Assembly (NCBI GenBank): GCA_038891615.1
Contig: JAWADY010000001.1
Location: forward strand, 170,952-234,951
Direction: 5' to 3'
Length of the DNA: 64,000 bases
Source of the DNA: Candidatus Woesearchaeota archaeon
GTDB lineage: Archaea; Nanobdellota; Nanobdellia; Woesearchaeales; ARS49
Part shown: piece by piece, positions 186-46,091 of the stretch
How the letters are laid out: each line of letters begins with the position of its first letter
Position numbering within the stretch: the stretch's first letter is position 1
Made by a program: the position numbers and the translations under genes
Notes under the pieces: model-generated
Told to the model about the DNA's origin: nothing
Databases searched by the model: none
What the model saw: only the letters and a program-made list of their open reading frames with translations

Positions 186-1679
186 ATGAAACTTATTGTA
201 AAGGATATGGACATAGCAACTGGTGGAACGCAGATAGTAATCCTAAATAAGGCTGATGCAGAAGCACTTGACCTACATCCAATGGACAGACTTCTTGTTA
301 GAAAGGGAAATAAGAAGACCATAAGTGTCCTTGACATTGCTGAAAGTGAAAAGGCTGTTCCAAGAGGGAAAATTGGTCTTTTTGAAGAAGTGCTGGATGC
401 GCTAGGCGCTGTTGAAGGAGACATTGTTCAAATATCTTTTGAAAAAAAGCCAGAATCTGTTGGTTATATAAAAGAGAAACTTGATGGGAAAGAATTGAGC
501 TATGATAAAATATACGAAATAGTAAAGGACATTGTAGATAATAAGCTTACCGACATTGAACTTAGCAGCTATATAACTGCGAATTATACAAGAGGGATGA
601 CTACAAAAGAGATTGTCGCACTTACAAAGGCGATGATTGCAACCGGTTCTGTGCTGAAACTAAAAGAAAGACCAATTGTTGACCTACATTCAATAGGCGG
701 CGTACCAGGCAACAGGACAACGCTAATAGTTGTACCGATTCTTGTAGCTGCAGGCTTGAAAGTTCCAAAGACATCAAGCAGGGCAATAACATCTCCTGCA
801 GGAACAGCAGATACGATGGAGGTTTTTTGTAATGTCATGTTGCCAATGAAAAAGCTGGAGCAGATTGTAAAGAAGGTTGGAGGTTTTATTGTGTGGGGAG
901 GCTCTGTTAACCTTGCGCCGGCAGACGATAGGATAATAAAGGTTGAATATCCCCTTGCGCTTGATGCAGAAGGTCAAATGCTTGCATCAATATTGGCAAA
1001 AAAGCTTTCAGTGAATGCAACAAACCTTCTTGTTGAAATTCCGGTTGGAAAGGGCGCAAAGGTTGAAAGCTTAGAGAGGGCCTTGCATCTTAAGCATCAT
1101 TTTGAACTTCTGTCAAAAGAGCTTTGGATTTCAACAAAGGTCATGATAACAGATGGTTCTCAGCCGGTTGGAAGAGGGATAGGACCTGCTCTTGAGGCAA
1201 GAGATTGCCTTTGGGTGCTGATGAATGACCCTCGCGGGCCAAAAGACCTAAAACAAAAATCTATCGAAATGGCTGGCGAGCTACTTGAATTTTCAGGTAA
1301 GGTAGCAAAAGGAAAGGGAAAAGAATTTGCAGCAACGCTTCTTGAAAATGGAAGTGCTTACAAAAAATTTTCCGAAATAATATCAGCACAGGAAGGAAAG
1401 CTCACATTGCCTGACGATATACTTCTGGGCAACAATGTGTATGAGGTTCGGTCAGAAACGAAGGGAATTGTCAAAAGGATCGAAAATGCTGTTGTGACAA
1501 AGATAGCAAGGCTGGCTGGCGCGCCAATTGACAAGAGGGCAGGTTTATATCTTCACAAAAAGTCAGGAGAATCGGTTTCAAAAGGTGAGATTTTGTTTAC
1601 AATTTACGCAGAAAGTGCGGAAAAGCTTAAATATGCTGTTGATGTTGCAAAAAAGATGCCTGCATTTGTTATCGAATAA
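186..1679 (+). CDS. deoA: AMP phosphorylase / thymidine phosphorylase family protein (archaeal DeoA type with N-terminal extension domain)
   Basis: 497 aa. Motifs SIGGVPGNRTT and TSSRAITSPAGTAD are typical of the pyrimidine-nucleoside/AMP phosphorylase family. The ~85-aa N-terminal domain and ~500-aa length fit archaeal AMP phosphorylase. Confidence 0.8.
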   Translation: MKLIVKDMDIATGGTQIVILNKADAEALDLHPMDRLLVRKGNKKTISVLDIAESEKAVPRGKIGLFEEVLDALGAVEGDIVQISFEKKPESVGYIKEKLDGKELSYDKIYEIVKDIVDNKLTDIELSSYITANYTRGMTTKEIVALTKAMIATGSVLKLKERPIVDLHSIGGVPGNRTTLIVVPILVAAGLKVPKTSSRAITSPAGTADTMEVFCNVMLPMKKLEQIVKKVGGFIVWGGSVNLAPADDRIIKVEYPLALDAEGQMLASILAKKLSVNATNLLVEIPVGKGAKVESLERALHLKHHFELLSKELWISTKVMITDGSQPVGRGIGPALEARDCLWVLMNDPRGPKDLKQKSIEMAGELLEFSGKVAKGKGKEFAATLLENGSAYKKFSEIISAQEGKLTLPDDILLGNNVYEVRSETKGIVKRIENAVVTKIARLAGAPIDKRAGLYLHKKSGESVSKGEILFTIYAESAEKLKYAVDVAKKMPAFVIE

Positions 1680-20164: not shown

Positions 20165-20291
20165 CCCCGCGTAGCTCAACGGTGGAGCGTCCGGCTGTAG
20201 CTGAAAAGCGCCCGTAGACAAGGTATTTGCCATGGATGACAACGGGTCAGCCGAACCCGGAAGGCTGCTGGTTCGAATCCGGCCGCGGGGA
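20165..20291 (+). tRNA. tRNA-Tyr (anticodon GTA) with ~55-nt intron at canonical 37/38 position
   Basis: C1:G72 acceptor (CCCCGCG/CGCGGGG) as in archaeal tRNA-Tyr. D-arm GCTC/GAGC. Anticodon stem TCCGG..CCGGA is split by an insert at 20201-20255. T-arm GCTGG-TTCGAAT-CCGGC. Discriminator A. Confidence 0.8.
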
Positions 20292-20363: not shown

Positions 20364-21011
20364 TCATTTTTTTAATATTTTCTTTATATAACCGAACTGA
20401 TCATGGAATATGTGAGCACTTGTGGAAAATGTTGTTATAGAGCCTGCGTCACAGCCAAGTTTTTTTCTTACATAATCTTGCAACACATATATCTGATAAA
20501 TGTTAGCAGGCCATCCAAAGAAAAAGTCGTTTGACCTTATCACTGCGGTAAGGTTGAGTCTGTTCTCTCTCAACTTTAAATCGATCATCACAAGTCCTGG
20601 GATGTCACGTTTCATCACATTGCTGTCCTCTTTTGGGTCCCAAAGTGAGAGAACAGCTCTTCTGGAATTTGGAATCTCTTTTAGTAAAGGAATTATGAAA
20701 TCGTTTATCTGATTTATTTTGCCTTGAAAATTAAATAACCTGGGTCCATAGCTATATGAATAATCCGGCGCAAGCTTATTGGCAAGCATAACCTTTGCAA
20801 TCTCATCAAACGGAGGATATTTCCAATTACCAAAAGTGTTTAAAAGCTGCATTGGTCTTGTTATGTCTTGTTCTGGATTTTTTATTTGCACCCCAAAGTT
20901 AAGCAATTCTCTGCACATCCTGTTGTTCTCGTCCATGAAATCCATTCCTCTTTTGAGTATCGTGGCAAGGCTTTGTTTCCATGCTTCCAATGCTGTTCTT
21001 GTGATTATCAT
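20364..21011 (-). CDS. thymidylate synthase (ThyA)-fold protein, short archaeal type; catalytic PCH cysteine apparently absent
   Basis: SRRAVLSLWDP matches the ThyA RRxxxSxWNP box. RSNDFFFGWPANIYQIYVL matches RSxDxFLGxPFNIASYALL. SAHIFHDQ matches DTHLY. The position aligned to the ThyA PCH motif reads IPGLVM. Confidence 0.6.
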   Translation of the reverse strand: MIITRTALEAWKQSLATILKRGMDFMDENNRMCRELLNFGVQIKNPEQDITRPMQLLNTFGNWKYPPFDEIAKVMLANKLAPDYSYSYGPRLFNFQGKINQINDFIIPLLKEIPNSRRAVLSLWDPKEDSNVMKRDIPGLVMIDLKLRENRLNLTAVIRSNDFFFGWPANIYQIYVLQDYVRKKLGCDAGSITTFSTSAHIFHDQFGYIKKILKK

Positions 21012-21013
21012 CT

Positions 21014-22612
21014 TCAGGTCAAAAACTGCTCCAATCTTACATTTAATTCTAAAGCACCTGAAAAAGAATATCTAAAAAATGGTAGTCTATAGGTGTTAAG
21101 TATGAAGCCCATCTCCCTTAGTACATCCTTGGGCTGCATTGGCCCTTTCTTATAAAAGCTTATCATATCTCCTCCATCAAAAACCTCGAACAATTTTTCC
21201 TTTGTTTCCATTACCTGTTTTAACTCGTCATTGTAAAGGTCGCTCAAACCTCTTACAAAATAGCGCTTGTATGAAGGCTTTGTAAAGATGTCGCGTACAA
21301 AATCATCAAATGCGCATGAAAAAGCTACCCTAAATCTCGTAGGCATTCCACAACTTTTGTATATCGTATCCTCAGCAATGCAAAAATCATCAACTGCCTT
21401 TTTGCTTTCCTTGAGATAACTAAGCAAGAACTCTATGCTAAACTGAGAATTTTTCCAGCCGTAGTTCCAAAATCTCACATAATTTTTTCCAAACATAAAA
21501 AAATTTTTTGCATGGCTGGGGTCTAGTGCTATCAGGCTTCCAAAAAGCTCATCTGAGCGTTGCCGCTGAAGGGAATTGGCAAGCAGCAGAGAATCCGCAA
21601 TTTTTAGTACAAAACGCTTGAACTGCTCTATTGCTTTTTCCTGATTCTGAAAGAACCTCTCTACATCGACCATTATTGTTGATTGACCACAAATGAGCCC
21701 AGGAATGTGTCCCTGCATTTCTTTCTCATAGAGTAACCATTCGTTTTCAGAAAAGGTGTACGGTCCAGCCTTGCCAACAAAATATGGCGCCTGATAGCAG
21801 TTTTGGTTCTTTATGTAAAGGCTTTCATTGTGTCTGGAGTAAAGCTGCACAAGCTTTTCGAAAAAATCAGAATGCTCATAAAATTCCTTTAGTTGGGTGT
21901 CAAAAACAAAGGTTATGTTTCTATTTTTCTGTTGAAGAAGCAAAGAAATAAGTTTAAGTATTGGCTCGCCCTTTGTCACATTTGTCATGTCGATAATGTA
22001 GCATATCTTTTTACCATAGTCATCACATTTTGCATTGAGCTTTGTCACAAACGGTGCAAGCAATTGGGTCTCTGATTTTTGGACCATGACTTCAAAATCG
22101 TTTACTGCAATAACATCATTGACAACACCAAAACATCCATTGATGGCATGCCATAGCCCTTTAGGGCTCTTGAATAGCGATGCCTCAAGCAGAACACTGT
22201 TTAGCCTATCAATCCACGTTGTTGCCTCTAATTTATATATAATTCCCTTTTGTTCATAGCCTTCTACTGGCATGGGAGGAGTTATTGGTCGGGTGACAGT
22301 AATGTTATCAAAGTGTGGCACCTCTACCCCAGCCACAATTGCAAAGCTTTTTTCTTTGTTTTTACCTTCCTTTGTTATCCTTATGTAGCCTTCAAGAACA
22401 AGTTTGTTAAGATAGTAAAGAATGCGCCTGTGCAATTGTGCCTTACGTCTTTTTGCTTGCTTTTGTCTTTCAACATCACTAGAAATAAGCAATCTTTCAA
22501 TCTCGTCATATCCTGGGGTTAGCTTCTCTACAATCTCTGTTGTAGAGAATTCCTTTTCAGGATTCTTTGCTAAAAGTTCTAATATTGATGTTTCAAAATC
22601 TCCTTTACGCAT
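21014..22612 (-). CDS. hypothetical 532-aa protein with N-terminal winged-helix-like segment, co-operonic with ThyA-like gene
   Basis: Long ORF with no recognisable catalytic motif. It ends 7 nt upstream of the ThyA-like start. Confidence 0.5.
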   Translation of the reverse strand: MRKGDFETSILELLAKNPEKEFSTTEIVEKLTPGYDEIERLLISSDVERQKQAKRRKAQLHRRILYYLNKLVLEGYIRITKEGKNKEKSFAIVAGVEVPHFDNITVTRPITPPMPVEGYEQKGIIYKLEATTWIDRLNSVLLEASLFKSPKGLWHAINGCFGVVNDVIAVNDFEVMVQKSETQLLAPFVTKLNAKCDDYGKKICYIIDMTNVTKGEPILKLISLLLQQKNRNITFVFDTQLKEFYEHSDFFEKLVQLYSRHNESLYIKNQNCYQAPYFVGKAGPYTFSENEWLLYEKEMQGHIPGLICGQSTIMVDVERFFQNQEKAIEQFKRFVLKIADSLLLANSLQRQRSDELFGSLIALDPSHAKNFFMFGKNYVRFWNYGWKNSQFSIEFLLSYLKESKKAVDDFCIAEDTIYKSCGMPTRFRVAFSCAFDDFVRDIFTKPSYKRYFVRGLSDLYNDELKQVMETKEKLFEVFDGGDMISFYKKGPMQPKDVLREMGFILNTYRLPFFRYSFSGALELNVRLEQFLT

Positions 22613-22755
22613 TAGCCACCCCTAAAAACTGTCTAAAACAGTCTATTATATAAAATTTATCATATTTCAGGAAATTTTATTGAAACGGTTTCAATAGTTT
22701 CAGAAGAATAATTTATATTTCAAAAAATAATTCTTATTTCAAATGCATAAAAAAA

Positions 22756-22848
22756 GGGATTCCTGAAACAAAAATTACACACAGGCCGAAAACCCGCCAA
22801 TTTCGTTAAATCACAACAAGTAGAGCTCATTGGAGCTCCAGGAATCCC
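22756..22848. promoter_or_regulatory. 10-bp perfect inverted repeat (GGGATTCCTG ... CAGGAATCCC) enclosing 73 nt, in the leader/promoter region of the Zn-ribbon HTH regulator gene
   Basis: Direct reading. A 15-nt palindrome TTGAAACGGTTTCAA lies at 22680-22694 in the same divergent intergenic region. Confidence 0.3.
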
Positions 22849-23293: not shown

Positions 23294-23435
23294 GCCTCGG
23301 TAGTCTAATGGCTAGGATAGAGCCCTGTCGACGCCAAATCCAAATTGGCCAATGGCTTTTGATGGACTAGCCTGACGCGTGGTTACGCGTTGCGACAGAC
23401 CGGCTCTGATGCGGGTTCGAATCCCGCCCGGGGCG
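23294..23435 (+). tRNA. tRNA-Asp (anticodon GTC) with 70-nt intron
   Basis: Acceptor GCCTCGG/CCGGGGC. Anticodon stem GAGCC..GGCTC. Exon loop CTGTCG + C38 (GTC anticodon, G37/C38). T-arm GCGGG-TTCGAAT-CCCGC. Discriminator G73 as in tRNA-Asp. Intron at 23331-23400. Confidence 0.7.
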
Positions 23436-27005: not shown

Positions 27006-30000
27006 TCACACAGTAACTAAATTTCCAGCAACTAACTCTGCTTGTTTTAAAACGGTTTCTGTTGCTTTTTTTTCTTTATCAGGCGGATAGCCATATTTTC
27101 TCAGTATTTTCTTTACTTTGAGGCGCAACTCTGCTTGAACACTTTCTCTTTGTGTCCAGTCTATTGTAACACTTTTTCTTATCATTTGTGTTAGTTCGAG
27201 TGCTATTTTTCTTAAGGTTTCGTCACCAAGTATTTTAACTGCGCTATCATTGGCTTCAAGTGCATCATAAAATGCAAGTTCATCTTCACTCATTCCAAGC
27301 TCTTTTCCCCTGTTTTTTTCTTCTCTAACTTTTCGTGCTAACTCTATTAATTCTTCTACAGCTTGCGCAGCCTCTATAGTCCTATTTGTATATTTCTTTA
27401 TTGTTTTATCCAGCATCTCCATGAAAGATTTGCCTCGAACAAGGTTTCTTTTTGAAATTATTTTAATCTCATCATTCAATAATTTTTTAAGAGCTTCAAA
27501 CGCGAGGTTTTTCTGAGGCATATCTCTTACTTCAGCTAGAAAACGCTCTGATAAAATTGAAAGTTCTGGTTTTTTAATTCCAGCAGCCTCAAATATATCT
27601 ATAATTCTATCAGAGATTACTGCCTTTGAAATAATCTGTTTGATTGCTGTTTCATATTCTTCTATTACATCTTTTTTGGTTTCGAGTTTTTTTGACATTG
27701 TTAATTTTAATGTCTGAAAAAAGCCAACTTCTTCCTTAATCTTCATGGCTTTTTCATGAGGAAATGACAAAGATAATGCTTTTACAAGAGCTGTTGCTTC
27801 TTTTCTAAATCTTTCTTTTTTCCCTGGCTCTTTTAGTATGTATTCCATTGCATTTAGCATGAAAGGAAATTTTTCTTTTGGCGAAAGCTCGAAAAATTTC
27901 TTGTAATTAAAACCATAAAACATATCTTTAACTATCTCATATTTTTCTAACATTAATTTGACAGCCTCTTCTTGGTCCAATATTGGCTTTCCTTTACCGC
28001 CACTTAGTGTATAATCCATAAGTGCTTTTTTAAGTTCAGCTCCAACACCCATATAGTCGACAATCAGACCACCTTCCTTTCCAGGATAAACCCGATTCAC
28101 TCTTGCTATTGCCTGCATTAGAGTATGACCTTTTATTGGCTTATCAAGATACATTGTATGCAGAGATGGCGCATCGAACCCTGTCAAGAACATATCTCTT
28201 ACGATAAGGAGTTTGATTTCATGTTTTGGGTCCCTAAAATTATCCCCTATTCTCTTTCTTCTTTCTTTGTTTCTTATATGCTGCTGCCATTCTTTCGGGT
28301 CAGAAGCAGAGCCTGTTATTACGACTTTAATAAATCCTTTATCATCGTCATCATTATGCCACTCTGGCCTTAGTTTTATTATCTCGTTATAAAGGTCAAT
28401 GCATATTCTTCTCGACATACAAACAATCATTCCTTTTCCATCAAGGACAGAAAGCCTTTGCTCAAAATGATTTACAATGTCTTCTGCAATCCTTCTTATT
28501 CTTTTAGGAGCGCCCGCAACCTTTTCAAGACTTGCCCATTTACTTTTAAGTTTTTCTTTATGCTCTACCTCTTCGCCTTCTGTTACCTCCTCGAACTCTG
28601 GATCAATCTTTGGTCTTTCTTCTGGTTTTAACTCCAGCTTTGCTAATCTGCTTTCGTAAAATATTCCTACAGTAGCACCATCATTAATAGCTTGTTCAAT
28701 ATCATAAATATCAACATATTTTCCAAATACAGCAGGGGTTGATCTATCCTCTTTTTCTATTGGCGTTCCAGTAAAGCCAATGAATGACGCATTGGGCAAA
28801 GCATCTCTTAAGTACTTTGCATAACCATATGTTATAAGCACCTTATCTTCTTTTTTCAGTATTCTTGCAGGAAAACCATATTGGCTTCTATGAGCTTCAT
28901 CCGCTATTACAATAATATTGTCTCGCTCTGATAGAGTAGGATACTTTTCTCTATCATCTTTTGTTTCTGGAAAGAATTTTTGTATAGTAGTAAAAATAAT
29001 TCCGCCAGAAGCAACTTTAAGTAATTCCATCAGTTCTTTTCTTGTGCTTGCTTGAACTGGTTCTTGTCTTAATATGTCTTGACACTTGATAAAAGTTCCA
29101 AATAATTGGTCATCAAGGTCATTTCTGTCTGTAAGAACAACAATCGTAGGATTATCCAGTTGTCTAATAATTTTTCCAGCGTAAAAAATCATTGTCAAAC
29201 TTTTTCCAGAACCCTGAGTGTGCCACACAATACCTGCCTTTTTATTTGTCCTTCTTGCCTGCAAGGTTGATTCTACTGCTTTATTTGCAGCCCAATACTG
29301 GTGATATGCTGCTAATTTCTTTTTTGTTTCTTTATCTTTTTCAAAAACAATAAAGTTTCTTACGATATCTAAAAGCTTGTCTTTGTCAAGCATGCCTCTA
29401 AGCAAGATTTCTATTTCTGATAGCCCTTTCATCGGTTTTTCTCCTTCTATTGTTTTCCACTGCATAAACCTCTCTGGCTCAGAAGTAATCGTGCCTGCTC
29501 TTGCATCCATGCCATCGCTAATAACTAAAATTTCGTTATATTTGAACAAAGAAGGTATCTGTTCTTTATATGTTTGAAATTGATTATATGCTGTCCAGAT
29601 TGTTGCATCTTTATCTGCAGGGTTTTTTAACTCTATAACAACCAAAGGCAAGCCATTAACAAACAACACAATATCTGGCCTTCTTTCAGCATTGTTTTCT
29701 ATTACTGTAAACTGGTTGACTGCAAGAAAATCATTATTTTTTATATCTTCAAAATCGAACAAATTAATCAAAACGTGCCTTTCTTCACCTGCTTTTGCTA
29801 TAGGAATGCTGATACCATCTGTAAGCATCCTATGAAAGGTTTCATTGTCAACAAGCAACTTTTGGCTTCCTATTCTCAAGACTTCCTTTATAGCCTGCTC
29901 TCTCACCTCTTCTGAAACCTGCGGATTAATCCTTCTCAAAGCTTCTCTTAATCTATCAACAAGCACAACATCTTCATATCTCTGCCTTAGAGCATATTTT

Positions 30001-30110
30001 CCACCTGGTAAGTAATCCTCATTATTTCCCCTGATTACTTCATAGCCAAGGCTGCCCAAAACTGACAAAGCAAATTCTTCAACATCCGATTCATGGATTG
30101 CTTTTATCAT
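27006..30110 (-). CDS. hsdR: Type I restriction enzyme R subunit
   Basis: 1034 aa. Walker [17 protein letters not shown] box [11 protein letters not shown], HsdR N-terminal nuclease region. Confidence 0.9.
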
Positions 30111-30511
30111 TTCATCATCTTCTTAAATTTCAAGATTAAATTTTTCAATTGTTCCACAACAACCTCTGCTTCTTCCTTTTCAAGCTTTTTTCCATAATAA
30201 TTTACAGCGTTTCTAGTTTTTCTTAAATTATCAAAAATGTCAGCTTCCCTAGATAAATTTAATATTTCTTTTAGAAAAGCTGTGTAGCATTCATGATTAT
30301 AAATTTTGAATCCTTTTTTAATAGGCAATGCTTCTAAAATCTCCCTTAATGAATCGTACAATAAAGAAATTTTGCTTATAAGAAATTCATCAGCCAAAGA
30401 ATCAGTAGAGTTAAATTTTATTTCTGCTGTTTCTAATAAAGATATTATCATATTTTTATCCTCTTTCGTCTCTTTTGCAATTCTTTGTTTTAAGCATTCT
30501 CTCCAGTCCAT
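30107..30511 (-). CDS. HEPN-like protein, putative partner of the adjacent MNT
   Basis: 134 aa, all-alpha. [12 protein letters not shown] resembles the HEPN Rx4-6H box, but His appears replaced. Gene order and 2-nt spacing after the MNT gene are typical of MNT-HEPN modules. Confidence 0.45.
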
Positions 30512-30512
30512 C

Positions 30513-31025
30513 TTACCAGTTCCCTTTTATTTTGAAACCATTTAATATATTTTTAAGCAAATTTTCACTTTTTACATCTTCAATTCCTCTAAAAACAAAA
30601 ATCTGTATTCTCCTTTTTAGCAATTTTTCAAATTTCTCAAGATTAATTTCTTTTTTCGTTGGTGTAAAAATTGCAAGATCAATATCAGAATCAATCTTTG
30701 CTTCTCCTTTTGACAAAGAGCCAAAAAGATAAACTATTGGAGTTAATAAATTCTTTTCCAATTCTTTCAATAAGCCGGAATCTTCTAATATTTTTTTCCA
30801 ATAAATTCTTGATAACTCTACGAAAAGCTCAGAATCCTTATTTACAAAATAATAATTATAAATCTTCTCTTTTTCTTTTTTGAGCAAGCCTTCTTTATAC
30901 AAGTTTTCAAGAATCTTTGAAGCTGTCGGCGGGCTTATTTTTTGAATTCTTGCATACTCGCGAACATTAATCCGACTATAGCAATCTTCAAAGAAAGGCT
31001 TCAAAGTGTTAAATATTTCTAACAT
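30513..31025 (-). CDS. minimal nucleotidyltransferase (MNT) with N-terminal wHTH
   Basis: LFGSLSKGEAKIDSDIDLAIF is the GS..DxD pol-beta NTase motif. N-terminal REYARIQKISPPTASKILENL HTH-like segment. Confidence 0.65.
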   Translation of the reverse strand: MLEIFNTLKPFFEDCYSRINVREYARIQKISPPTASKILENLYKEGLLKKEKEKIYNYYFVNKDSELFVELSRIYWKKILEDSGLLKELEKNLLTPIVYLFGSLSKGEAKIDSDIDLAIFTPTKKEINLEKFEKLLKRRIQIFVFRGIEDVKSENLLKNILNGFKIKGNW

Positions 31026-31125
31026 ATGTTAAAAATAATTAACATTTCTATTTAAATCTTTTGAAAAATAAACCTCAAAATATATGTTAAAAATAATTAA
31101 CAAGTGTTAAAAAATATTAACATTT
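31026..31125. promoter_or_regulatory. three copies of a 20-nt palindromic operator-like repeat (ATGTTAA-N6-TTAACAT) upstream of and overlapping the MNT start codon
   Basis: Copies at 31026-31045, 31084-31103 and, degenerate, 31105-31125. The arms are exact reverse complements. Confidence 0.4.
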
Positions 31126-31130
31126 TTGTA

Positions 31131-32510
31131 TTAAGCAGATTTTTTAATCTCCCTTTCCATCTCTTTTATCATCTCAGCAGGCACTCTAATTTTGCCAGAC
31201 ATAAGTTTAGGAAGGAGAGAATCGCGAAGTTGGGAGAAGGTGAGGGATTCTTTTAAGTTATTATAAATTCGATTATAGATAATAGTTAATATATTTTCAA
31301 AAATATCTAAAACTTTTTTTTCAGGTATTAAAATTTTTGTTGATTTAATGTGATTTAAATTAATTATTGGCATAGTGCTTCCTGAAGATATTCTTTCCCA
31401 ATATTTCTCTTCGGATAGTCTTTTAAGGAAGATAAATAAATAGAATCTTCCTATTTTGTTTTCGTCTATTGTTATTTTTGCTAAACGACTTACTATTACA
31501 GCCTTATCATAAATATCAGTCATAATCCCTAGTAATCCTAGAGTCCCCGTTTTTGATATAATTATATCTCCTTTTTTAACAGAACTCCTTTTAACTTCTT
31601 GAAATTTTTTTTCTGATATAAAATGCTTAAATGGCTTATATAAAGGATAACCTTCCAAGTATTCCATTTCGATAATAGGAATTCCAGAATTTTGATATTC
31701 TGTTATTTTCATTTGTGTTCCGAATGGTCCATCGACTATTGAATTTTTCTCATCAGAGGATATATCTTCGATTTTCCCAACCCTCCACCCCTTAGGTATC
31801 TCTTTGCCGAGCTCTTCATTATAAACCATTTCTCCGCCAGAGCTTTTGTAAGGCTTACCCTCTTCATTCGGAAACTCAAAATCAACAAACCAGTGCTTGA
31901 AAATTGCCTGGCCAATTGCCTCAAGGGTTTTGTTCATTCGCTGGTTGAGTTCGATCTTATCATCAAATGCCGAAAGAACTTTAGCAATGGCGCGTTGCTC
32001 GGGGAGGGGCGGGATAGGAAGTTCTACATCCTTAAAAGTGTTTGTAGTTATGGTTTCAAAAACAGTTCCATAAGATACAGATCTAATCTTATTTATCGAG
32101 TTTTTAATCGAATAATAGAGGTATATTACATCATATTCTTTTTTTGGTTGTAAACCATAACATGTCTGATTAAAAGTCATCGGCTCTGGTAATAATGCTA
32201 TTGCACCGACAGTCCCTCTCGAAGTAATTACAATTGTATTTTTTGGATGGATTTTTGCATTGCTATTCTTTACTCCCTCTTCGGTTATTGTTCTTTCTGT
32301 AACTGTTACATATCGCGACTTAACATTTGCAATATCCCTTGCAGTTGCCCATTTAAATTTTCCATCCCAAAAATATTTAATTTCTGTTTTAGGGGTTCCC
32401 CCTAATGAAATATCGCATGTTTCACTAATAGATTTAACCTCCCAATCCTCAGGGATCATTCCGATTTCAGTTTGTTTGAATTTGGGTTTATTTTGGGTTT
32501 GAGGGTTCAT
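31131..32510 (-). CDS. hsdS: Type I restriction-modification specificity subunit
   Basis: Two target-recognition domains separated by conserved repeats. N-terminus MIPEDWEVKSISE is typical. The start was chosen at Met 32510 (MNPQTQ...). The ORF track extends to 32609. Confidence 0.8.
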   Translation of the reverse strand: MNPQTQNKPKFKQTEIGMIPEDWEVKSISETCDISLGGTPKTEIKYFWDGKFKWATARDIANVKSRYVTVTERTITEEGVKNSNAKIHPKNTIVITSRGTVGAIALLPEPMTFNQTCYGLQPKKEYDVIYLYYSIKNSINKIRSVSYGTVFETITTNTFKDVELPIPPLPEQRAIAKVLSAFDDKIELNQRMNKTLEAIGQAIFKHWFVDFEFPNEEGKPYKSSGGEMVYNEELGKEIPKGWRVGKIEDISSDEKNSIVDGPFGTQMKITEYQNSGIPIIEMEYLEGYPLYKPFKHFISEKKFQEVKRSSVKKGDIIISKTGTLGLLGIMTDIYDKAVIVSRLAKITIDENKIGRFYLFIFLKRLSEEKYWERISSGSTMPIINLNHIKSTKILIPEKKVLDIFENILTIIYNRIYNNLKESLTFSQLRDSLLPKLMSGKIRVPAEMIKEMEREIKKSA

Positions 32511-34095
32511 TTTTAACCACCATAAGTAATATACAGTTGTTATTGTTGTCTGGCACTTTGATAATCTCAATATTTGGCATTTTTGTCCTTTCTTGAAGTG
32601 ATTTAACAATTGTTTTTATTCTATCATCATCAAACTTAGAAATAGGAATAGGTTCAAATTGTTTTGTTTTTTCATTTGCACCAATGATATATACCTTTAT
32701 ATTAGACTCCTTCACCTTTTTACTAAGGTCGCTAGCAAAATAAGAAACTATTTCATCGTTACTACCTGAAAAAACATCCGAAGATTTCAATTCTAGTATT
32801 TCGTTTTCAGTATTTACAAAACTAATGTCAAAAGTTGAATTTTCAAATATCTTTTTAGATAGGCAATTTAAAAAATAACAAATAGGTTTATCTTCATTCT
32901 CTATGGCTAATAATTTTAAAATAGAGCCCAATAAAATACTATTAAATGAGTCTCTTATTTGCATTTTTTCATAATAATCTAAAAGTATTTTACTTAATTC
33001 TTTCTGTAGCTCGTTATAAATCTCCATGTTTTTTATTTTAATTGAGTTTGCGGATATTCTACAGCCTGCATGATAAACTCTGAAAGATTCGTTATTCAAT
33101 AATTTAGTTTTAATTTCTTCTAAGAAACTTCCCCGAATTTCTATGCTATTGTCTGAAAATAGTATTAGGAAGTTAGGATTTGTCTTTTTAATTATCACGT
33201 TGCCGTCTTGTTTTACAACATTATTCTTATCATCAAATATTTTTTCCTGATATGGAATGATAGAATTTTTTAACTTTATGTATTCTTCATTATAATAACT
33301 CAGATTATATCGTTTTGCTAAAAAATCTTGTACAAAATCATCATAATTTGTATATGGCTTCCTACCAACTTTGACTAATGACAACGGTATTCTTTCTATC
33401 GGAGCAGGTAAAATTATTTGTTTGTCCTTGACCTTAAACGCTTTTTCTTCTATAAACTTTTTCTCGAAATCGTCATCACTTAATTCTAAAGAAAAAGGAA
33501 CCCCGCTTACTTCACCACAAAATTTATTTTTACCGCCCAAATATTCAAATGCCACTTTTTGAGGTATACCTAACCAGTTAGCAAAGAACACAGAAGGATT
33601 AGTTTCATAAAAAATAACATCAATACTATCTTTCTCATTTTTAAAGTAAACAAATCTCAGGATATTATCTTTATCAAGCATTCTGTCTATAACCTCCCAT
33701 TTGGGTGTAATGGTTTCCTCACCAAAGAGGCTATGACAAAGTATGACAAATTCGGATGTGACTATACAAATCGCATATTTCTCTTCCATCCTCATTCTGG
33801 TGTTCATTTCGTCGCTAAAATCGTTAAGTAATTCTTTTGCGTCTCTGTCATCTATTAAAGGATAAGAGGAAATCAAATTTTTAATCCAAATTTGACAATT
33901 CTCCTTTAATTGAATTTCATCAAATTTTTTTCTTTTACCTAAATTTAATAACGAATTAACAACCTTCGTTATTTTATCTTTATCTACTTTTCTGGTTATT
34001 TTATCTTGGTTAATATCATTCTCAATTACTTTCTTTGAATATACGAATGTTGGCTCTCCCTTATTTTGATTTGTAATCATTATTACACACTCCAC
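32488..34095 (-). CDS. hypothetical 535-aa protein embedded between hsdM and hsdS (no recognisable motif; Asn/Lys/Ile-rich)
   Basis: Long ORF that overlaps hsdM by 13 nt and hsdS by about 23 nt, which implies translational coupling within the Type I R-M operon. No P-loop or nuclease motif seen. Confidence 0.5.
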
Positions 34096-35606
34096 CCCAG
34101 CATCTCCAAATTTCTTTTTATTTCTTCATCTAGCTTTTTGCTCTCTTCCATTTGCTGTTTGAGTTCTGCTGTGAGTTTTTTCATTTTTTCTTCAAAAACT
34201 TCTTCTGGCTCTTCTTGTTCTTCAAAGCCGACATAACGGCCTGGTGTTAAAATGAAATTATTTTTTTCAACTTCTTGTAATGAAGCAGATTTGCAAAAAC
34301 CAGGGATGTCTTTATATCCAAGTTTGTTTTCTCCTCTCCATGCATGGTAAGTATCGGCAATTTTCTTTATTTCATCATCAGTTAATTCTCTATGTCTTCT
34401 ATCAATCATTACGCCCATTTTTCTGGCATCGATAAACAGAATCTTTCCTCGTCTATCTTTGAACTTGTTATCTTTTTTATCACGAGCAATAAACCATAAA
34501 CAAGCTGGAATCATTGTGTTGTAGAACAGCTGCGATGGCAAAGCGACAATACAATCTACGAGGTCTGCTTTGATAATATTTTTTCTTATTTCTCCTTCGT
34601 TAGAAGTCATTGAGCTTAAAGAGCCGTTAGCAAGAACAAAACCAGCAATTCCTGTTGGTGATAAATGATGGATAAAATGCTGTACCCATGCAAAATTGGC
34701 ATTTCCTTTTGGTGGAACACCAAACTTCCACCTAACATCTTCTTGTAATAACTCGCCGCCCCAGTCTGAATCATTAAAAGGAGGATTTGCTAGGATAAAA
34801 TCAGCCTTCAAATCCTTGAATTGGTCGTCATGAAAAGAATCACCCCACTTAATGTTTGCGTCAATTCTTCTTATCGCAAGGTTCATTTTGCACAGACGCC
34901 ACGTTGTCTGGTTGCTTTCTTGACCATAAATTGAAATATCTCCAATCTTTCCACCATGAGCTTCAACAAATTTTTCTGATTGAACAAACATTCCTCCTGA
35001 ACCACAACAAGGGTCAAATATTCTTCCTTTGTATGGTTCAAGCATTTCAACAAGCAATTTTACAATGCATCTCGGTGTGTAGAACTGACCGCCTTTTTTG
35101 CCTTCTGCAGATGCAAATTGTCCAAGAAAATATTCGTAAACTCTTCCAAGAATGTCTTTGCTTTTGTTTTCTTTATCACCTAGCCCAATCGTGCCAATTA
35201 AATCTATTAGTTCTCCTAGGCGCTGCTTGCTTAATGCTGGCCTTGCATAAATCTTTGGGAGAACACCTTTTAATGAGGGATTATCCCTTTCGATATCCTC
35301 CATTGCATGGTCTATGAGTTCTCCAATTTCTGGCTTTTTTGCATTAGCCTGCAAATACTCCCATCGCGCTTCTTTTGGAACCCAGAAAACTCTTCTTGCA
35401 AGATATTCGTCAACATCTTCTGGATCAGCTTCTGGGTCTTTTTTTAATTCTTCATAAACTTCTTTAAAAGAGTCGGAAATGTATTTTAAGAATATTAAAC
35501 CTAAAACAACATGCTTGTATTCTGCAGCATCCATATTGCTTCTCAACTTGTCTGCAGCCTGCCAGAGCTTCTCTTCGAAACCTAAATTCGCACTATTAGT
35601 TTTCAT
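34083..35606 (-). CDS. hsdM: Type I restriction-modification N6-adenine DNA methyltransferase subunit
   Basis: Motif [15 protein letters not shown] and motif IV LANPPFN. HsdM N-terminal domain. 507 aa. Confidence 0.9.
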
Positions 35607-38797: not shown

Positions 38798-40303
38798 ATG
38801 TCTGCTGAAACAAGGATACTCCTCAAAAAATATTTTGAAGAAAACTCATTTGTACGCTCGGATATAGAATCCTTTAATGATTTCGTTGACCGAGAGCTGC
38901 ATAATATTGTTGAAGAAAACAAAATAATAGAACCAACAATTATCCCTCCAAATGTTGAAAAATTCCAGATAAGGCTAGACGGGATATCTGTTGAGAAGCC
39001 AGAAATTATTGAAGCAGATGGCAGCAGGAGACCCATTTATCCGACTGAGGCAAGACTAAGAAAAATAACCTACGCAGCTCCTATTTACTTAGACATCAGT
39101 TCGCACATAAATGATGTTCAGCGCGAAAGCTTCACTCCACAAATAGGAAACCTACCAATAATGCTGAAGTCAAAATACTGCCATCTTAATGGCCTTAGCG
39201 AAGAACAGCTTGTGGAAAAAGGCGAAGACCCATACGACCCAGGAGGTTATTTCATCATAAATGGCACTGAGCGCATACTTGTTCATGTAGAAGACCTTGC
39301 TGCAAACAGGTTTATCGTTGAAAAAACAGGGGGTGTCAGCGAGTATACTGGAAGAATTTTCTCTGAATGGGGAAGTTACAAAATTCCGCACACTTTAGAA
39401 ATGCTAAAAGACGGGCTTTTATACCTTAGCTTTAGCGGAAGAGCAAAGCGCATACCTCTCATAGTTGTCATAAAGGCTCTTGGCCTTATTAAGGATGAGG
39501 AAATTGTTAATTTTGTATCGCGTGAAAGGCAGTACGATGAAGTGCTTATAAACCTTTTTGAATATTCCGGCATTAAAACATCAGAGGACGCAATGGAATG
39601 GATTGCAAAAGAGATTGGTATAACACAAGCAAAGGAAGTCAGACTTGAAAGGGTTTCTGAAATTTTGGACCGATTTCTTTTGCCACACATCGGTGTATCA
39701 CAACATGCAAGAATAGCAAAGGCGTGGAACCTGTGCAAAATGATAAGAAAATATCTGGCAGTCGCCAATGGTGAAATAGAACCAGACGATAAAGATCACT
39801 ATATGAACAAGCGCCTTAAGATGGCTGGCGACCTTCTAGCAGATCTCTTTAGGGTCAATCTTAAAATAATGATAAATGACCTTCTTTACAATTTCCAACG
39901 AAGTGTTAAGCGTGGCAAGTTTCCTTCAATAAAAACCCTTGTGAGGGAGAAGCTACTAACTTCAAGGATTTATAGCGCGATGGCAACTGGCAACTGGGTT
40001 GGTGGGCGAAAGGGAATATCTCAGAGGATTCAAAGATTAAACAACCTGAATACTTTGAGTCATCTACAAAGGGTTGTTTCACCCTTATCCTCAACGCAAG
40101 AGAACTTCGAAGCAAGAGCGCTTCACCCAACACACTTAGGAAGACTTTGCCCAGTTGAAACCCCTGAAGGAATTCCGATTGGTTTGAGAAAAAATCTTTC
40201 ACTACTTGCTTCGGTTTCACTCGAGTCGCCTGAAGAAGAAATACTTAAGGTCCTGAGGTCTGCAGGCCTCAAAGAGCTCCAGCTAGAGCGACCTGGAAAG
40301 TAA
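38798..40303 (+). CDS. rpoB2: DNA-directed RNA polymerase subunit B'' (Rpo2N)
   Basis: 501 aa. Conserved Rpb2 N-terminal regions (ESFNDFV, GYFIINGTERILV). Confidence 0.95.
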   Translation: MSAETRILLKKYFEENSFVRSDIESFNDFVDRELHNIVEENKIIEPTIIPPNVEKFQIRLDGISVEKPEIIEADGSRRPIYPTEARLRKITYAAPIYLDISSHINDVQRESFTPQIGNLPIMLKSKYCHLNGLSEEQLVEKGEDPYDPGGYFIINGTERILVHVEDLAANRFIVEKTGGVSEYTGRIFSEWGSYKIPHTLEMLKDGLLYLSFSGRAKRIPLIVVIKALGLIKDEEIVNFVSRERQYDEVLINLFEYSGIKTSEDAMEWIAKEIGITQAKEVRLERVSEILDRFLLPHIGVSQHARIAKAWNLCKMIRKYLAVANGEIEPDDKDHYMNKRLKMAGDLLADLFRVNLKIMINDLLYNFQRSVKRGKFPSIKTLVREKLLTSRIYSAMATGNWVGGRKGISQRIQRLNNLNTLSHLQRVVSPLSSTQENFEARALHPTHLGRLCPVETPEGIPIGLRKNLSLLASVSLESPEEEILKVLRSAGLKELQLERPGK

Positions 40304-40307
40304 CAAA

Positions 40308-42110
40308 ATGACAGAAGTTTATCTTAATGGCAAGTTTGTCGGCGATGTTGAAAGTCCTGAAGATTTCATTAGACACATAAAAAGTGAAAGAAGGAAAGGA
40401 TTGATAACCCAGAATCTTAATGTCTATTATGACAAAAGGCTCGAGAGGATTGAAGTTGAAGCAGGTCATGGAAGGGTTAGACGACCATTGATAGTTGTGC
40501 GCGATGGCCAACCTCTTCTAACAGAAAAGCACATCAAACAACTTGAAGCAGGAGAAATAAAGTGGAGCGATCTTATCAGACAGGGAGTGATAGAGTATCT
40601 TGACGCGTCTGAAGAAGAAGATGCGCTTGTTGCATTTTCTCCAAAAGAGCTAACGCCAGAACACACTCATCTCGAGATTACCCCACTTGCAATGCTTGGC
40701 CTTGTAACAAGCCTTGTACCATATGCAAACTTCATCATGCCAGTTAGATTGATAATCGGTTCAAAAAATCTCCGACAATCAATAGGTTTTTACACAGCGA
40801 ATTATCCGTTGCGGATGGATATGGACATAGGTCTGTTGCACTATCCACAAGTTCCAATTGTAAAAACAGCCATGCATGACATTTCACACTATGAACGCTA
40901 TCCAGCGGGCCAAAACATTGTTATTGCTGTGATTGGGTATGAAGGCTATAATATGGAAGATGCAATAGTCATTAACAAAGGTAGCATCCAACGCGGTTTT
41001 GGAAGGTCGACCTATTTCCGTCCTGTCATAAGCGAAGAGTTACGCTATTCAGGAGGTCTAATGGATAGGATCTGCATACCTGATAAAGATGTCAAGGGCT
41101 ATAGATCTGAAAAAGATTACAGATTTCTTGAAGATGATGGAATTGTTTATCCAGAAGCCAGGGTAAAAGAAGGAGACGTCGTCATTGGAAAAACCTCCCC
41201 ACCAAGGTTCTTAAGCGCATTTGAGGAGTATGGGCTGGCTGCAAACATAAGAAGGGAAAGCTCAGAAGTGCTAAAGCATGGCGAGGGAGGGATTGTTGAT
41301 TTTGTACTAATTACTGAAAACGAGGAAGGCAACAAATCAGTGCAGGTGAGAATAAGGGATCAAATGATACCTGAAATTGGGGATAAATTCATTTCAAGAC
41401 ATTCCCAAAAAGGTGTTGTTGGATTAATTGTTCCGGAGAGCGACATGCCCTTTACCGCTTCAGGAATCAGGCCTGACATACTTTTTAGTCCACATTCGAT
41501 ACCTTCAAGAATGACTATATCGCATCTCCTTGAGCTTATTGGAGCAAAGGTTGGCGCGCTTGCCGGAAGGGAAGTAGATGCAACAGCCTTTGAAGGCGAG
41601 CCGGAAGAAGCGCTGAGACAGGAACTTCTTAGATTAGGTTTCAACGAGAAAGGTATTGAGACGATGTATAATGGAATTACCGGCGAACAATACAAAGTAA
41701 AAATATTCGTTGGCCCTATGTACTACTTGAAACTTAAGCATCTTGTTGCCAACAAGATACAGTCCAGGGCACGTGGGCCAATCCAGTTGCTTACAAGGCA
41801 GCCAACTGAAGGGCGGGCAAAAGAGGGAGGGCTGAGACTTGGAGAGATGGAAAAGGACACCTTTGTGGCGCACGGGGCTGCACTCCTGCTAAAAGAGCGT
41901 TTTGATTCTGATAAGACGGTAGTTCCAGTGTGTGAAAATTGCGGGCTAATTGCCATCCACGACAGCTATAAGAAAAAACGCTATTGCCTGGTTTGTGGTG
42001 AAAATGTTGAGATAAATGATATTGAAATTAGCTATGCTTTCAAACTTATGCTTGACGAACTAAAAGCTATGGGAATTTATCCGAAAATGAGTCTTAAAAC
42101 AAAATACTGA
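40308..42110 (+). CDS. rpoB1: DNA-directed RNA polymerase subunit B' (Rpo2C)
   Basis: 600 aa. GYNMEDAIVINKGSIQRG, SRHSQKGV and the C-terminal zinc ribbon CENCGLIA...CLVCG. Confidence 0.95.
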   Translation: MTEVYLNGKFVGDVESPEDFIRHIKSERRKGLITQNLNVYYDKRLERIEVEAGHGRVRRPLIVVRDGQPLLTEKHIKQLEAGEIKWSDLIRQGVIEYLDASEEEDALVAFSPKELTPEHTHLEITPLAMLGLVTSLVPYANFIMPVRLIIGSKNLRQSIGFYTANYPLRMDMDIGLLHYPQVPIVKTAMHDISHYERYPAGQNIVIAVIGYEGYNMEDAIVINKGSIQRGFGRSTYFRPVISEELRYSGGLMDRICIPDKDVKGYRSEKDYRFLEDDGIVYPEARVKEGDVVIGKTSPPRFLSAFEEYGLAANIRRESSEVLKHGEGGIVDFVLITENEEGNKSVQVRIRDQMIPEIGDKFISRHSQKGVVGLIVPESDMPFTASGIRPDILFSPHSIPSRMTISHLLELIGAKVGALAGREVDATAFEGEPEEALRQELLRLGFNEKGIETMYNGITGEQYKVKIFVGPMYYLKLKHLVANKIQSRARGPIQLLTRQPTEGRAKEGGLRLGEMEKDTFVAHGAALLLKERFDSDKTVVPVCENCGLIAIHDSYKKKRYCLVCGENVEINDIEISYAFKLMLDELKAMGIYPKMSLKTKY

Positions 42111-42139
42111 AAAGGCACAAAAAATAAAATAACAGCAAA

Positions 42140-44923: not shown

Positions 44924-44930
44924 GGTGAAA

Positions 44931-46091
44931 ATGCATCCAGAACTAGAAAAATACAAGGGCCTGATGCCTCCTTCCATTCTTGCCGAAATCGAAGAGAAGT
45001 GTCCAGCAAGCAAAATAAAAAAGGTTGCGGAGAAGGTTTATGAAGAATACAAAAGTGCAAGGATTGATGCAGGGGAAGCGATTGGCATTGTGACAGCAGA
45101 ATCACTTGGAGAGCCAGGCACCCAGATGACTTTGAATGTTTTCCACTTCGCAGGAGTTTCTGAAATGAATGTTACAATGGGCTTGCCAAGACTTATAGAG
45201 ATATTTGACGGTAGAAAAACACCAACCACACCAATGATGGAAATATATTTGAAAAGTCCTTACAATAGCGGCAAGAACATTCGTGAGCTTGCGCTTTCAA
45301 TCAAAGAAACAAAACTTGGGGAACTTGTGCCGGAGTTTGTCATGAACATAGTCGATATGACAATCGAGGTCTCTCCGAATCCTGAAAAGCTAAAAAGCAG
45401 AGGACTGACTCTTGCACAGGTTGCAAAAGCTATAGAGACAGGGGTGCGCGAGGCAAGCACAAAGCTAAAGGAGGGCGTGATTATCATAAAGCCAAAGAAG
45501 TCTGAAGAGCAGACGCTGAATGCTTTGTACAGACTCAGGGAAAAACTCAAGGAAGTTTACGTCCACGGCGTGAAAGGAATAAACCAGGTCCTTCCTGTGA
45601 AAAGAAAGGATGAGTATGTTATAATCACTTCAGGCTCAAATCTTAGGAAGATTCTTGAGCTCGACTTTGTGGACCAAACAAGAACAACCACCAACGACAT
45701 CTTTGAGATAGCTGAAGTACTTGGAATTGAAGCGGCCCGCAGAGCAATCCTCGAAGAGGTAAACAAAGTCGTTGCAGCGCAAGGACTTAATGTTGATATC
45801 CGTCACATCATGCTTGTTGCAGATACGATGTGTGCGGGCGGAACAATAAAAGGTGTAACACGCTATGGGGTTGTAAGTGAGAAAGCAAGTGTTCTTGCGA
45901 GAGCTTCCTTCGAAACTCCAATAAAGCACATCATCGATGCGTCGCTCATTGGTGAGGTGGATGAGCTGAATTCTATTGTTGAAAATGTTATGATTAACCA
46001 GCCAATGCCTGTTGGCACGGGCCTTCCAAGTCTTGTCACAAAAATAATAAAGGAAGCTATGGCAAAGCCTGAAGGAAAGGAGAAAGAGTGA
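44931..46091 (+). CDS. rpoA2: DNA-directed RNA polymerase subunit A'' (Rpo1C)
   Basis: About 386 aa. Conserved trigger-loop region. ATG 44931 is preceded by GGTGA. The ORF track begins at 44907, overlapping rpoA'. Confidence 0.9.
   Translation: MHPELEKYKGLMPPSILAEIEEKCPASKIKKVAEKVYEEYKSARIDAGEAIGIVTAESLGEPGTQMTLNVFHFAGVSEMNVTMGLPRLIEIFDGRKTPTTPMMEIYLKSPYNSGKNIRELALSIKETKLGELVPEFVMNIVDMTIEVSPNPEKLKSRGLTLAQVAKAIETGVREASTKLKEGVIIIKPKKSEEQTLNALYRLREKLKEVYVHGVKGINQVLPVKRKDEYVIITSGSNLRKILELDFVDQTRTTTNDIFEIAEVLGIEAARRAILEEVNKVVAAQGLNVDIRHIMLVADTMCAGGTIKGVTRYGVVSEKASVLARASFETPIKHIIDASLIGEVDELNSIVENVMINQPMPVGTGLPSLVTKIIKEAMAKPEGKEKE

Follow-up and report, generated by a model that had tools for sequence, protein, structure and literature searches.

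A DPANN archaeal operon pairing a ThyA-fold protein without its catalytic cysteine with a winged-helix protein of predicted reductase-like fold

We analysed a stretch of 64,000 nucleotides (nt) from a Candidatus Woesearchaeota archaeon (contig JAWADY010000001.1 of assembly GCA_038891615.1, positions 170,952 to 234,951 of the forward strand; hereafter the window), in which two adjacent minus-strand genes encode a protein with the ThyA fold of thymidylate synthase (TS) and a larger partner that joins a winged helix to a predicted barrel of the ribonucleotide reductase (RNR) type. The two genes form a conserved, DPANN-specific operon, and their pairing is essentially obligate across DPANN archaea. 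The ThyA-like protein has no cysteine at the position of the TS nucleophile, and no conserved cysteine occupies the segment of the partner that corresponds to the RNR finger loop. We are confident that the pair is a functional unit and that neither protein performs the canonical chemistry of TS or RNR; its role is a more tentative matter, and our preferred suggestion is a heteromeric complex that binds or senses uracil nucleotides, assembled from disabled enzymes of deoxynucleoside triphosphate (dNTP) synthesis. The two open reading frames (ORFs), both taken from the ORF list, are:

20364–21011, minus strand: ThyA-like ORF, 215 residues, a member of the Cys-less DPANN clade
21014–22612, minus strand: partner ORF, 532 residues, winged helix plus predicted RNR-fold barrel

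The paired genes and the vacant nucleophile position

Both ORFs are as an earlier sequence-only reading of this DNA had described them, except that the gap between them, given there as 7 nt, is 2 nt (TGA-AG-ATG). The partner lies upstream as the first gene of the operon and the ThyA-like gene follows as the second, translationally coupled to the first. A ThyA-like profile run against one genome per GTDB species returned 80 loci, 79 of them testable, and in 77 of the 79 the partner is upstream on the same strand, nearly always immediately adjacent. The reverse scan, a partner profile against JGI metagenomes, gave 68 testable loci, every one with the ThyA-like gene directly downstream of the partner (68/68; six that a script had flagged as negative are ORF-boundary artefacts and are counted as paired). 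About 50 of 72 stop-to-start gaps fall between −4 and +10 nt. Surrounding genes vary by lineage and the pairing is kept in otherwise unrelated contexts. The two genes are inseparable, and strong purifying selection acts on both proteins throughout a phylum-level radiation. All paired loci, genomic and metagenomic, come from DPANN archaea. Many of the contigs that carry the pair (L014–L085, P0106) are titled Methanosarcinales, Alphaproteobacteria, Leptospiraceae or Aenigmatarchaeota; these are probably mislabelled or mis-binned metagenome-assembled genomes.

We found no fusion joining the two genes and no viral copy of the pair in IMG/VR, and clustering of the neighbourhoods returned only housekeeping genes as recurrent neighbours, apart from a regulator of the Lrp/AsnC family described below. 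Among PADLOC defence-protein models the ThyA-like protein has no match and the partner has only a weak one in its winged helix-turn-helix (wHTH) region (E 2.7e-4); with no real PADLOC match and no copy in IMG/VR, membership in known anti-phage defence systems was rejected. No other thyA, thyX or RNR gene was detected in the window by motif scan and Pfam scans of 20 large ORFs, nor, by motif scan only, in about 750 kb of flanking sequence from relatives.

The ThyA-like protein scores above the gathering threshold of Pfam PF00303 (63.1 bits, cutoff 24.3) and aligns along its whole length with the methanogen-type model TIGR03283, where its 141.6 bits fall short of the equivalog cutoff of 174.55. 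Its AlphaFold model (predicted local distance difference test, pLDDT, 95.6) retrieves only ThyA-fold structures with Foldseek, MilA being the top hit (TM score 0.84), and the ThyA boxes named from the sequence alone are all present (SRRAVLSLWDP, RSNDFFFGWPANI and SAHIF). It belongs to the short type, in which the C-terminal lid (40 residues in bacterial ThyA) is missing. In phmmer alignments with PDB sequences the segment DIPGLVM stands opposite LTPCVYE of Bacillus subtilis ThyA and DVACTLA of MilA, and hhalign of an 83-sequence family profile against Escherichia coli ThyA (probability 97.4%) equates P138 with P145, G139 with C146 and L140 with H147. The claim of a ThyA-fold protein without the cysteine of the PCH motif is thus borne out by PF00303, phmmer, hhalign and the AlphaFold/Foldseek result. 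The accompanying doubt that the alignment might be shifted falls away with the phmmer and hhalign placement of G139 on C146. The features concerned are:

20595–20597, minus strand: Gly139 codon GGA, at the position of the E. coli ThyA catalytic Cys146 (phmmer, hhalign)
20406–20663, minus strand: retained nucleotide-site residues R117, R118, R159, S160, D162, N170 and H200, with F202 replacing Y209 (hhalign mapping)
20913–20915, minus strand: Cys33 codon, in an RxCRE motif on the first long β-strand; almost always Cys in the clade, with Ser in about 10% of species

The glycine codon GGA is two substitutions away from any cysteine codon, which rules out a single base-call error as the explanation, and the Cys-less state recurs in seven contigs with an identical protein and in hundreds of independent assemblies; sequencing error was rejected on both counts. 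Nor does another cysteine take the catalytic place. The cysteine of LGCDAGS (C187), put forward earlier as a candidate that would overturn the claim, sits at the C-terminal end of a long helix away from the catalytic motif and is Cys in 75 of the 120 closest homologues (63%), and no column of the family holds an invariant Cys. The alignments and these column counts together refute both a shifted alignment and a substitute cysteine at the catalytic site. ThyX identity was likewise rejected, the fold being that of ThyA; the ThyX motif RHRxxxxxxxS has no uninterrupted copy in the window, where the single regular-expression match spans a stop codon.

Loss of the cysteine is a property of the whole clade. 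The 120 closest homologues (48–100% identity), all of them in Woesearchaeota, Pacearchaeota or Nanoarchaeota assemblies, have Gly (92), Ser (22) or Ala (6) at position 139 and never Cys. An exhaustive HMMER search of 1.84 billion representatives gave 61 clusters at E ≤ 1e-30, and in the pooled set position 139 is Gly in 97, Ser in 73 and Ala in 13 of 183 distinct Cys-less sequences and Cys in all 56 Cys-type sequences. The earlier claim is therefore stronger than it was stated, the loss being common to 183 distinct sequences. The close clade is marked by Gly, Ser or Ala at 139, mostly Cys33, Phe202, Gly166 and Gln173; distant relatives have Cys139, Thr, Gln or Val at 33, Tyr202 and Ala166. At position 202, the equivalent of Tyr209, which hydrogen-bonds the 3′-OH, Phe occurs in 151 and Tyr in 24 of the 183, and Tyr in 56/56 of the Cys-type set. 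Relative to E. coli, then, the clade has Phe for Y209, Ile or Val for Q165, and Asp, Glu or Asn at the L143 position (136), where the window protein has D136.

A few Cys139 members of the clade are nested rather than basal in a rough neighbour-joining tree, which indicates that Cys is tolerated there and yet not required; the proposal that Cys139 is an ancestral state retained in a basal subclade is, on the same tree, unsupported. Basal members combine Ser139 with Tyr202 and are without Cys33. These deep-branching proteins also have a homologous partner (190–378 bits); the Cys-type short relatives lie in phage-like contexts without one. Cys33 might seem a relocated nucleophile, given the swap apparent at clade level, but 9 of 80 species combine Ser33 with Gly or Ser at 139, so Cys33 is not a universal substitute; several representatives at 50% clustering lack both Cys33 and Cys139, and some members carry both. 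We keep relocation as a minor possibility only.

Several Cys-containing relatives (P0263, P0285, P0295, P0304 and P0306) carry N-terminal MtrA-like or C-terminal PterinBD-DUF4346 fusions, an architecture that suggests pterin-dependent archaeal or viral TS enzymes. Some fused relatives of 786–837 residues have two ThyA domains, with Ser at the nucleophile position of the second.

By alignment, almost the whole deoxyuridine monophosphate (dUMP) site is kept, with its phosphate-binding Arg and Ser, uracil-reading Asn and sugar-binding His. The correspondences to E. coli are R117 to R126′, R118 to R127′, R159 to R166, S160 to S167, D162 to D169, N170 to N177, H200 to H207 and Y88 to Y94, so that the pterin-cofactor-binding Asp and the Tyr94 equivalent are also retained; across the Cys-less clade R117, R118, R159, S160, D162, N170, H200, Y88 and E35 are 90–100% conserved. 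Mutagenesis of the E. coli and Lactobacillus casei enzymes has established that Gly or Ala at the nucleophile position is inactive and that Ser gives trace activity at most. We conclude firmly that the ThyA-like protein is incapable of the canonical Michael-addition mechanism.

The partner protein and its promoter

For the partner, described earlier as a wHTH protein of unknown function, the first half of the description holds, a wHTH fold being present at its N-terminus. What that reading had missed is the remainder of the chain, which the AlphaFold model (pLDDT 92.1) shapes into an RNR-type barrel without a finger-loop cysteine. The placements below, as far as they concern the barrel, come from the secondary structure and topology of that model:

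22328–22612, minus strand: winged-helix domain, residues 1–95; T24 and R62 invariant, S23 and H61 nearly invariant
21014–22240, minus strand: predicted RNR-like 10-stranded α/β barrel, residues ~125–532, ordered as five strands, a hairpin and five strands
21701–21805, minus strand: predicted finger-loop equivalent, residues 270–304, between strands E and F; tip G280-K-A-G283-P-Y285
21350–21352, minus strand: Cys421 codon, in an IYxxCGM motif; 99% Cys in the family; in the loop before strand H, outside the finger loop

The predicted strands of the first half (137–143, 164–171, 202–208, 233–239 and 264–269) lead into a hairpin at 277–286, after which the second half follows (305–316, 376–382, 429–433, 484–488 and 512–516); in the model, this order is the topology of the RNR barrel. 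In every known RNR the finger loop is an insertion between strands E and F that bears the thiyl-radical Cys (PMC9669993). The partner family has no conserved Cys in residues 270–304, Cys reaching at most 19% at any column; its hairpin tip is instead an invariant G280-x-A-G283-P-Y285, modelled with pLDDT 97–98. The chain ends 16 residues past strand J, so it lacks a glycyl-radical domain, and neither an RVxG[FWY] glycine loop nor an ATP-cone was found in it; the winged helix sits where many RNRs have the ATP-cone. No activase or β-subunit gene recurs in the clustered neighbourhoods. With neither a finger-loop Cys nor a detectable radical source, we are firm that the partner, if its predicted structure is right, is incapable of RNR or glycyl-radical chemistry, and classification as a glycyl radical enzyme was rejected on the missing finger-loop Cys and RVxG[FWY] loop.

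The resemblance to RNR is one of predicted structure. The partner matches no family in Pfam or NCBIfam, RNR models included; its family profile has no match in the PDB; and hhalign against E. coli NrdD gives a probability of 0.1%. Its sequence relatives form 114 clusters of 513–580 residues, all from DPANN archaea, and a second search with the partner profile over 5.8 billion proteins returned only the same family, so a sequence-level link to RNR was discarded. Cys421 is replaced by Ser or Val in 3 of 77 partners.

Upstream of the partner lies a conserved promoter and operator region, with these elements in the window:

22616–22769, minus strand: promoter/operator region, from the sequence
22616–22622, minus strand: Shine–Dalgarno-like GGGGTGG
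22646–22655, minus strand: TATA box TTTTATATAA
22664–22671, 22697–22704 and, inverted, 22762–22769, minus strand: half-sites YCTGAAAY
22680–22694, minus strand: palindrome TTGAAACCGTTTCAA
22875–23171, plus strand: divergent ORF of 98 residues with CxxC...CxxC and a helix-turn-helix (HTH), an uncertain gene in the position of the relatives' Lrp/AsnC gene

Of the 80 loci, 54 have a divergent Lrp/AsnC-family gene (~160 residues, PF01037 plus HTH), as a rule within about 250 bp upstream of the partner and often at 70–250 bp. Of 73 loci (among L006–L085), 56 have the motif CTGAA[AG]C in the 200 nt that precede the partner gene, where shuffled sequence predicts about one. In 49 loci it stands just 5′ of a TATA-like box, 33 of them placing it 43–60 nt before the start codon, and it is often accompanied by a CTGAA-N3-TTCAG palindrome further upstream. 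It is commoner where the Lrp gene is adjacent (36/42) than where it is not (12/22). Over the whole window the motif shows no general enrichment (17 observed, 16 expected), and three copies cluster at the partner promoter. We liken the 13-bp 5-3-5 palindrome to archaeal Lrp/AsnC operators of the FL11 type. The conserved operator is probably the site of the divergent Lrp/AsnC regulator, and binding by the partner's own winged helix is possible.

The window itself has no Lrp gene, the 98-residue ORF standing in its place. Residues 40–84 of that ORF show weak blastp similarity to the HTH of Lrp/AsnC neighbours (E 0.003–0.1). It has no Pfam match and no homologue in the other loci, and so may be a lineage-specific remnant or no gene at all.

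Elsewhere in the window, two tRNA genes flank the operon on the plus strand, at 20165–20291 (127 nt) and 23294–23435 (142 nt); both are long enough for introns, and both were found by Rfam (53.9 and 48.5 bits) and missed by ARAGORN in bacterial mode. A type I restriction–modification cluster occupies 27006–35606 on the minus strand, with a product of 1034 residues bearing HSDR_N, ResIII and T1RH domains followed by three ORFs of about 500 residues; its GC content of 0.30 (especially at 30001–34000), against about 0.40 elsewhere, suggests horizontally acquired DNA. The RNA polymerase operon at 38798–46091 (plus strand) carries two genes for a split subunit B (501 and 600 residues, Pfam Rpb2 domains), then a 927-residue ORF with the ADFDG active-site signature that is probably A′, then a 394-residue ORF. 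At 186–1679 (plus strand) lies a 497-residue homologue of AMP/thymidine phosphorylase (Glycos_trans_3N, Glycos_transf_3 and PYNP_C), which belongs to an archaeal nucleotide-salvage route often reported in DPANN. A strong match to the prolipoprotein diacylglyceryl transferase Lgt (PF01790, 243 bits) lies at 61338–62132 on the minus strand of this archaeal DNA and recurs in related DPANN contigs (L005 10114–10857, L087/L088); Lgt, a lipoprotein enzyme, is ordinarily considered bacterial.

Readings of the pair

In the complex that we tentatively favour, the two proteins would associate stoichiometrically. A ThyA-like dimer would serve to bind a uracil (deoxy)nucleotide and not to make thymidylate, in the way that Cys-to-Gly pseudophosphatases still bind their ligands; a second nucleotide-binding module would come from the RNR-derived barrel; and the winged helix would be the output, coupling nucleotide status to DNA or to another partner. 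The whole would act as a sensor or regulator of the deoxynucleotide pool, derived from the two signature enzymes of dNTP synthesis in disabled form, with the operon itself under the control of an Lrp/AsnC-type operator at the TATA box.

Several points weigh against such a sensor. The complex, the ligand binding and DNA binding by the winged helix are all steps that we infer. The Tyr94 and Asp169 equivalents and Glu35 are retained, and their catalytic roles exceed the needs of a simple binder; Ser, in principle a weak nucleophile, could serve at the nucleophile position in about 40% of the clade; and the partner's invariant polar residues (N165, D166, N269, R380, N383, C421 and E472) resemble an active site. 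Operons for metabolic enzymes are where a divergent Lrp/AsnC regulator is more typically found, and a two-subunit sensor of 750 residues is costly for genomes of about 1 Mb.

Most of these points recur in favour of the main rival, a working enzyme pair carrying out non-canonical pyrimidine-nucleotide chemistry, that is, synthesis of thymidylate (dTMP) or another C5 modification of a uracil nucleotide, which we consider unlikely while taking it seriously. ThyX makes thymidylate without an enzyme nucleophile. Here the candidates to stand in for Cys146 are Ser139, Cys33, the partner's Cys421, or a small-molecule thiol or sulfide; Cys421 would, as a formal possibility, reach into the open active site of the lid-less short ThyA, and the role of the RNR-like subunit would be to provide substrate, reductant or a one-carbon unit. 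The nearly intact pocket, with its Tyr94, Asp169 and Asn177 equivalents and Glu35, speaks for this, as do the gain of Cys33 in the clade where Cys-type relatives have Thr, Gln or Val, the 99% conservation of Cys421, the many invariant polar residues of the barrel, the tight translational coupling, the divergent Lrp/AsnC regulator in a layout typical of metabolic operons, and the basal Ser139 and Tyr202. It gains further from Asp, Glu or Asn at position 136 (L143), as in the hydroxymethylases, and from the unexpected chemistry found elsewhere in the ThyA fold, such as dCMP 5-hydroxylation (both PMC13326640). However, Cys146 is kept in every characterised member of the TS superfamily (PMC13326640). 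Gly and Ala cannot act as nucleophiles, and in the 9 of 80 species that pair Ser33 with Gly or Ser at 139 the ThyA-like protein has no Cys available, several 50% representatives likewise lacking Cys33 and Cys139. From canonical TS topology, we take residue 33 to lie near the phosphate and ribose end of the ligand and not near C6. Cys421 is itself Ser or Val in 3/77 partners, the pterin-binding accessory domains of the Cys-type relatives are absent, and radical chemistry is closed to the RNR-like subunit. The earlier suggestion of a nucleotide or cofactor modification pathway may hold, and a non-catalytic nucleotide-binding complex fits the evidence about as well.

A more specific form of this enzymology, in which thymidylate, or some other deoxy- or C5-modified pyrimidine nucleotide, is made without a Cys nucleophile and the barrel and the ThyA-like protein share a composite active site, strikes us as decidedly improbable; in it, the cavity at Gly139 would be filled, for instance, by the barrel's Cys421 or by a thiol or sulfide from the environment. 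We give very little credence to the idea that the 532-residue protein is a true RNR of a new class that supplies DPANN archaea with deoxynucleotides, the ThyA-like protein being its accessory subunit: the finger loop has no conserved Cys; glycyl-radical domain, RVxG[FWY] motif and ATP-cone are all missing; no sequence similarity to E. coli NrdD (hhalign 0.1%), PDB chains or Pfam RNR families was detected; and no activase or β-subunit gene is found in the conserved neighbourhood. That the protein is an ordinary methanogen-type TS, its missing Cys an artefact or another Cys being catalytic, is almost certainly wrong, because the names given to many members by NCBI and JGI and the above-threshold PF00303 score are outweighed by G139 aligning with C146 in all three alignments, by a GGA codon two changes from Cys, by the same Cys-less state in 7 contigs with an identical protein and in hundreds of independent assemblies, by a C187 that is Cys in only 63% of homologues with no invariant Cys elsewhere, and by a TIGR03283 score under the equivalog cutoff.

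The coupling in one operon of a ThyA-fold and a predicted RNR-fold protein, both stripped of the catalytic Cys, appears to be undescribed, and we found no description of either family in the literature. Source databases call the gene first described here ‘thymidylate synthase’ and its partner ‘hypothetical protein’. The former label is attached to the ThyA-like gene in hundreds of Woesearchaeota, Pacearchaeota and Nanoarchaeia genomes, and is probably wrong, since the Cys that each family requires is missing. If no dTMP is made, metabolic reconstructions credit these symbionts with more capacity for producing DNA precursors than they have, and they may rely on their hosts for thymidine nucleotides more heavily than has been supposed. 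By sequence the partner family is an orphan, and its derivation from RNR is a matter of structure prediction only; with it, the RNR/glycyl-radical barrel superfamily would gain a member without the radical Cys. A conserved operon of remodelled DNA-precursor enzymes would represent either a new nucleotide sensor drawn from dead enzymes or new enzymology, and a composite active site, if true, would define a new class of DNA-precursor enzyme.

Relation to known systems

The closest comparison is with the short archaeal ThyA proteins of TIGR03283 and the Cys-type relatives, which have the same fold and length (~215 residues), also lack the C-terminal lid, and share E35, Y88, R91, RR117–118, P138, RS159–160, D162, N170 and H200. 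Unlike the TIGR03283 type, the clade has Gly, Ser or Ala at the nucleophile position, Phe for Tyr209, Gly for Ala166 and Gln173, together with a new WxYPP motif, Cys33 and an obligate RNR-like partner gene; the Cys-type relatives are either standalone in phage-like contexts or fused to MtrA or PterinBD-DUF4346 domains.

T4 dCMP hydroxymethylase, the CMP hydroxymethylase MilA and the phage 5-hydroxy-dCMP synthases also have the ThyA fold, and in the hydroxymethylases the L143 position is taken by an acidic or polar residue, like D136 here. All characterised members, from TS through the dCMP, dUMP and CMP hydroxymethylases to the recently described 5-hydroxy-dCMP synthases, keep Cys146, and the C5-modifying enzymes are distinguished by N177D for cytosine substrates, by L143D/E and, in hydroxylases, by D169N (PMC13326640). 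The clade, in contrast, does not keep Cys146, and where the cytosine-specific enzymes have Asp at N177 it has the Asn of the uracil type. Membership in the hydroxymethylases or 5-hydroxy-dCMP synthases was therefore rejected: the Cys is absent, N170 and D162 are kept, and D136 is the only feature that fits.

For the partner, the nearest counterparts are class III NrdD enzymes (Streptococcus thermophilus 9d3x, Thermotoga maritima 4u3e/4coj and T4 1h78), to which it has 8–11% identity and no detectable sequence similarity. In contrast to NrdD, its finger loop is Cys-less, the C-terminal Zn and glycyl-radical domains are missing, a winged helix occupies the place of the ATP-cone, and no activase gene lies nearby.

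The proposed conversion of an enzyme into a binding module has an analogue in the pseudophosphatase STYX, in which the nucleophilic Cys has become Gly and the ligand pocket is kept. Fold and ligand of STYX are unrelated to those considered here, where two different disabled enzymes are combined in one operon. In NrdR and regulators of the BirA type, a DNA-binding domain is joined to a nucleotide- or enzyme-derived sensor, and NrdR senses dATP/ATP through an RNR ATP-cone. The DPANN pair would go further than NrdR, with what appears to be a whole RNR catalytic barrel fused to a winged helix that may bind DNA, and a ThyA-like protein as second subunit.

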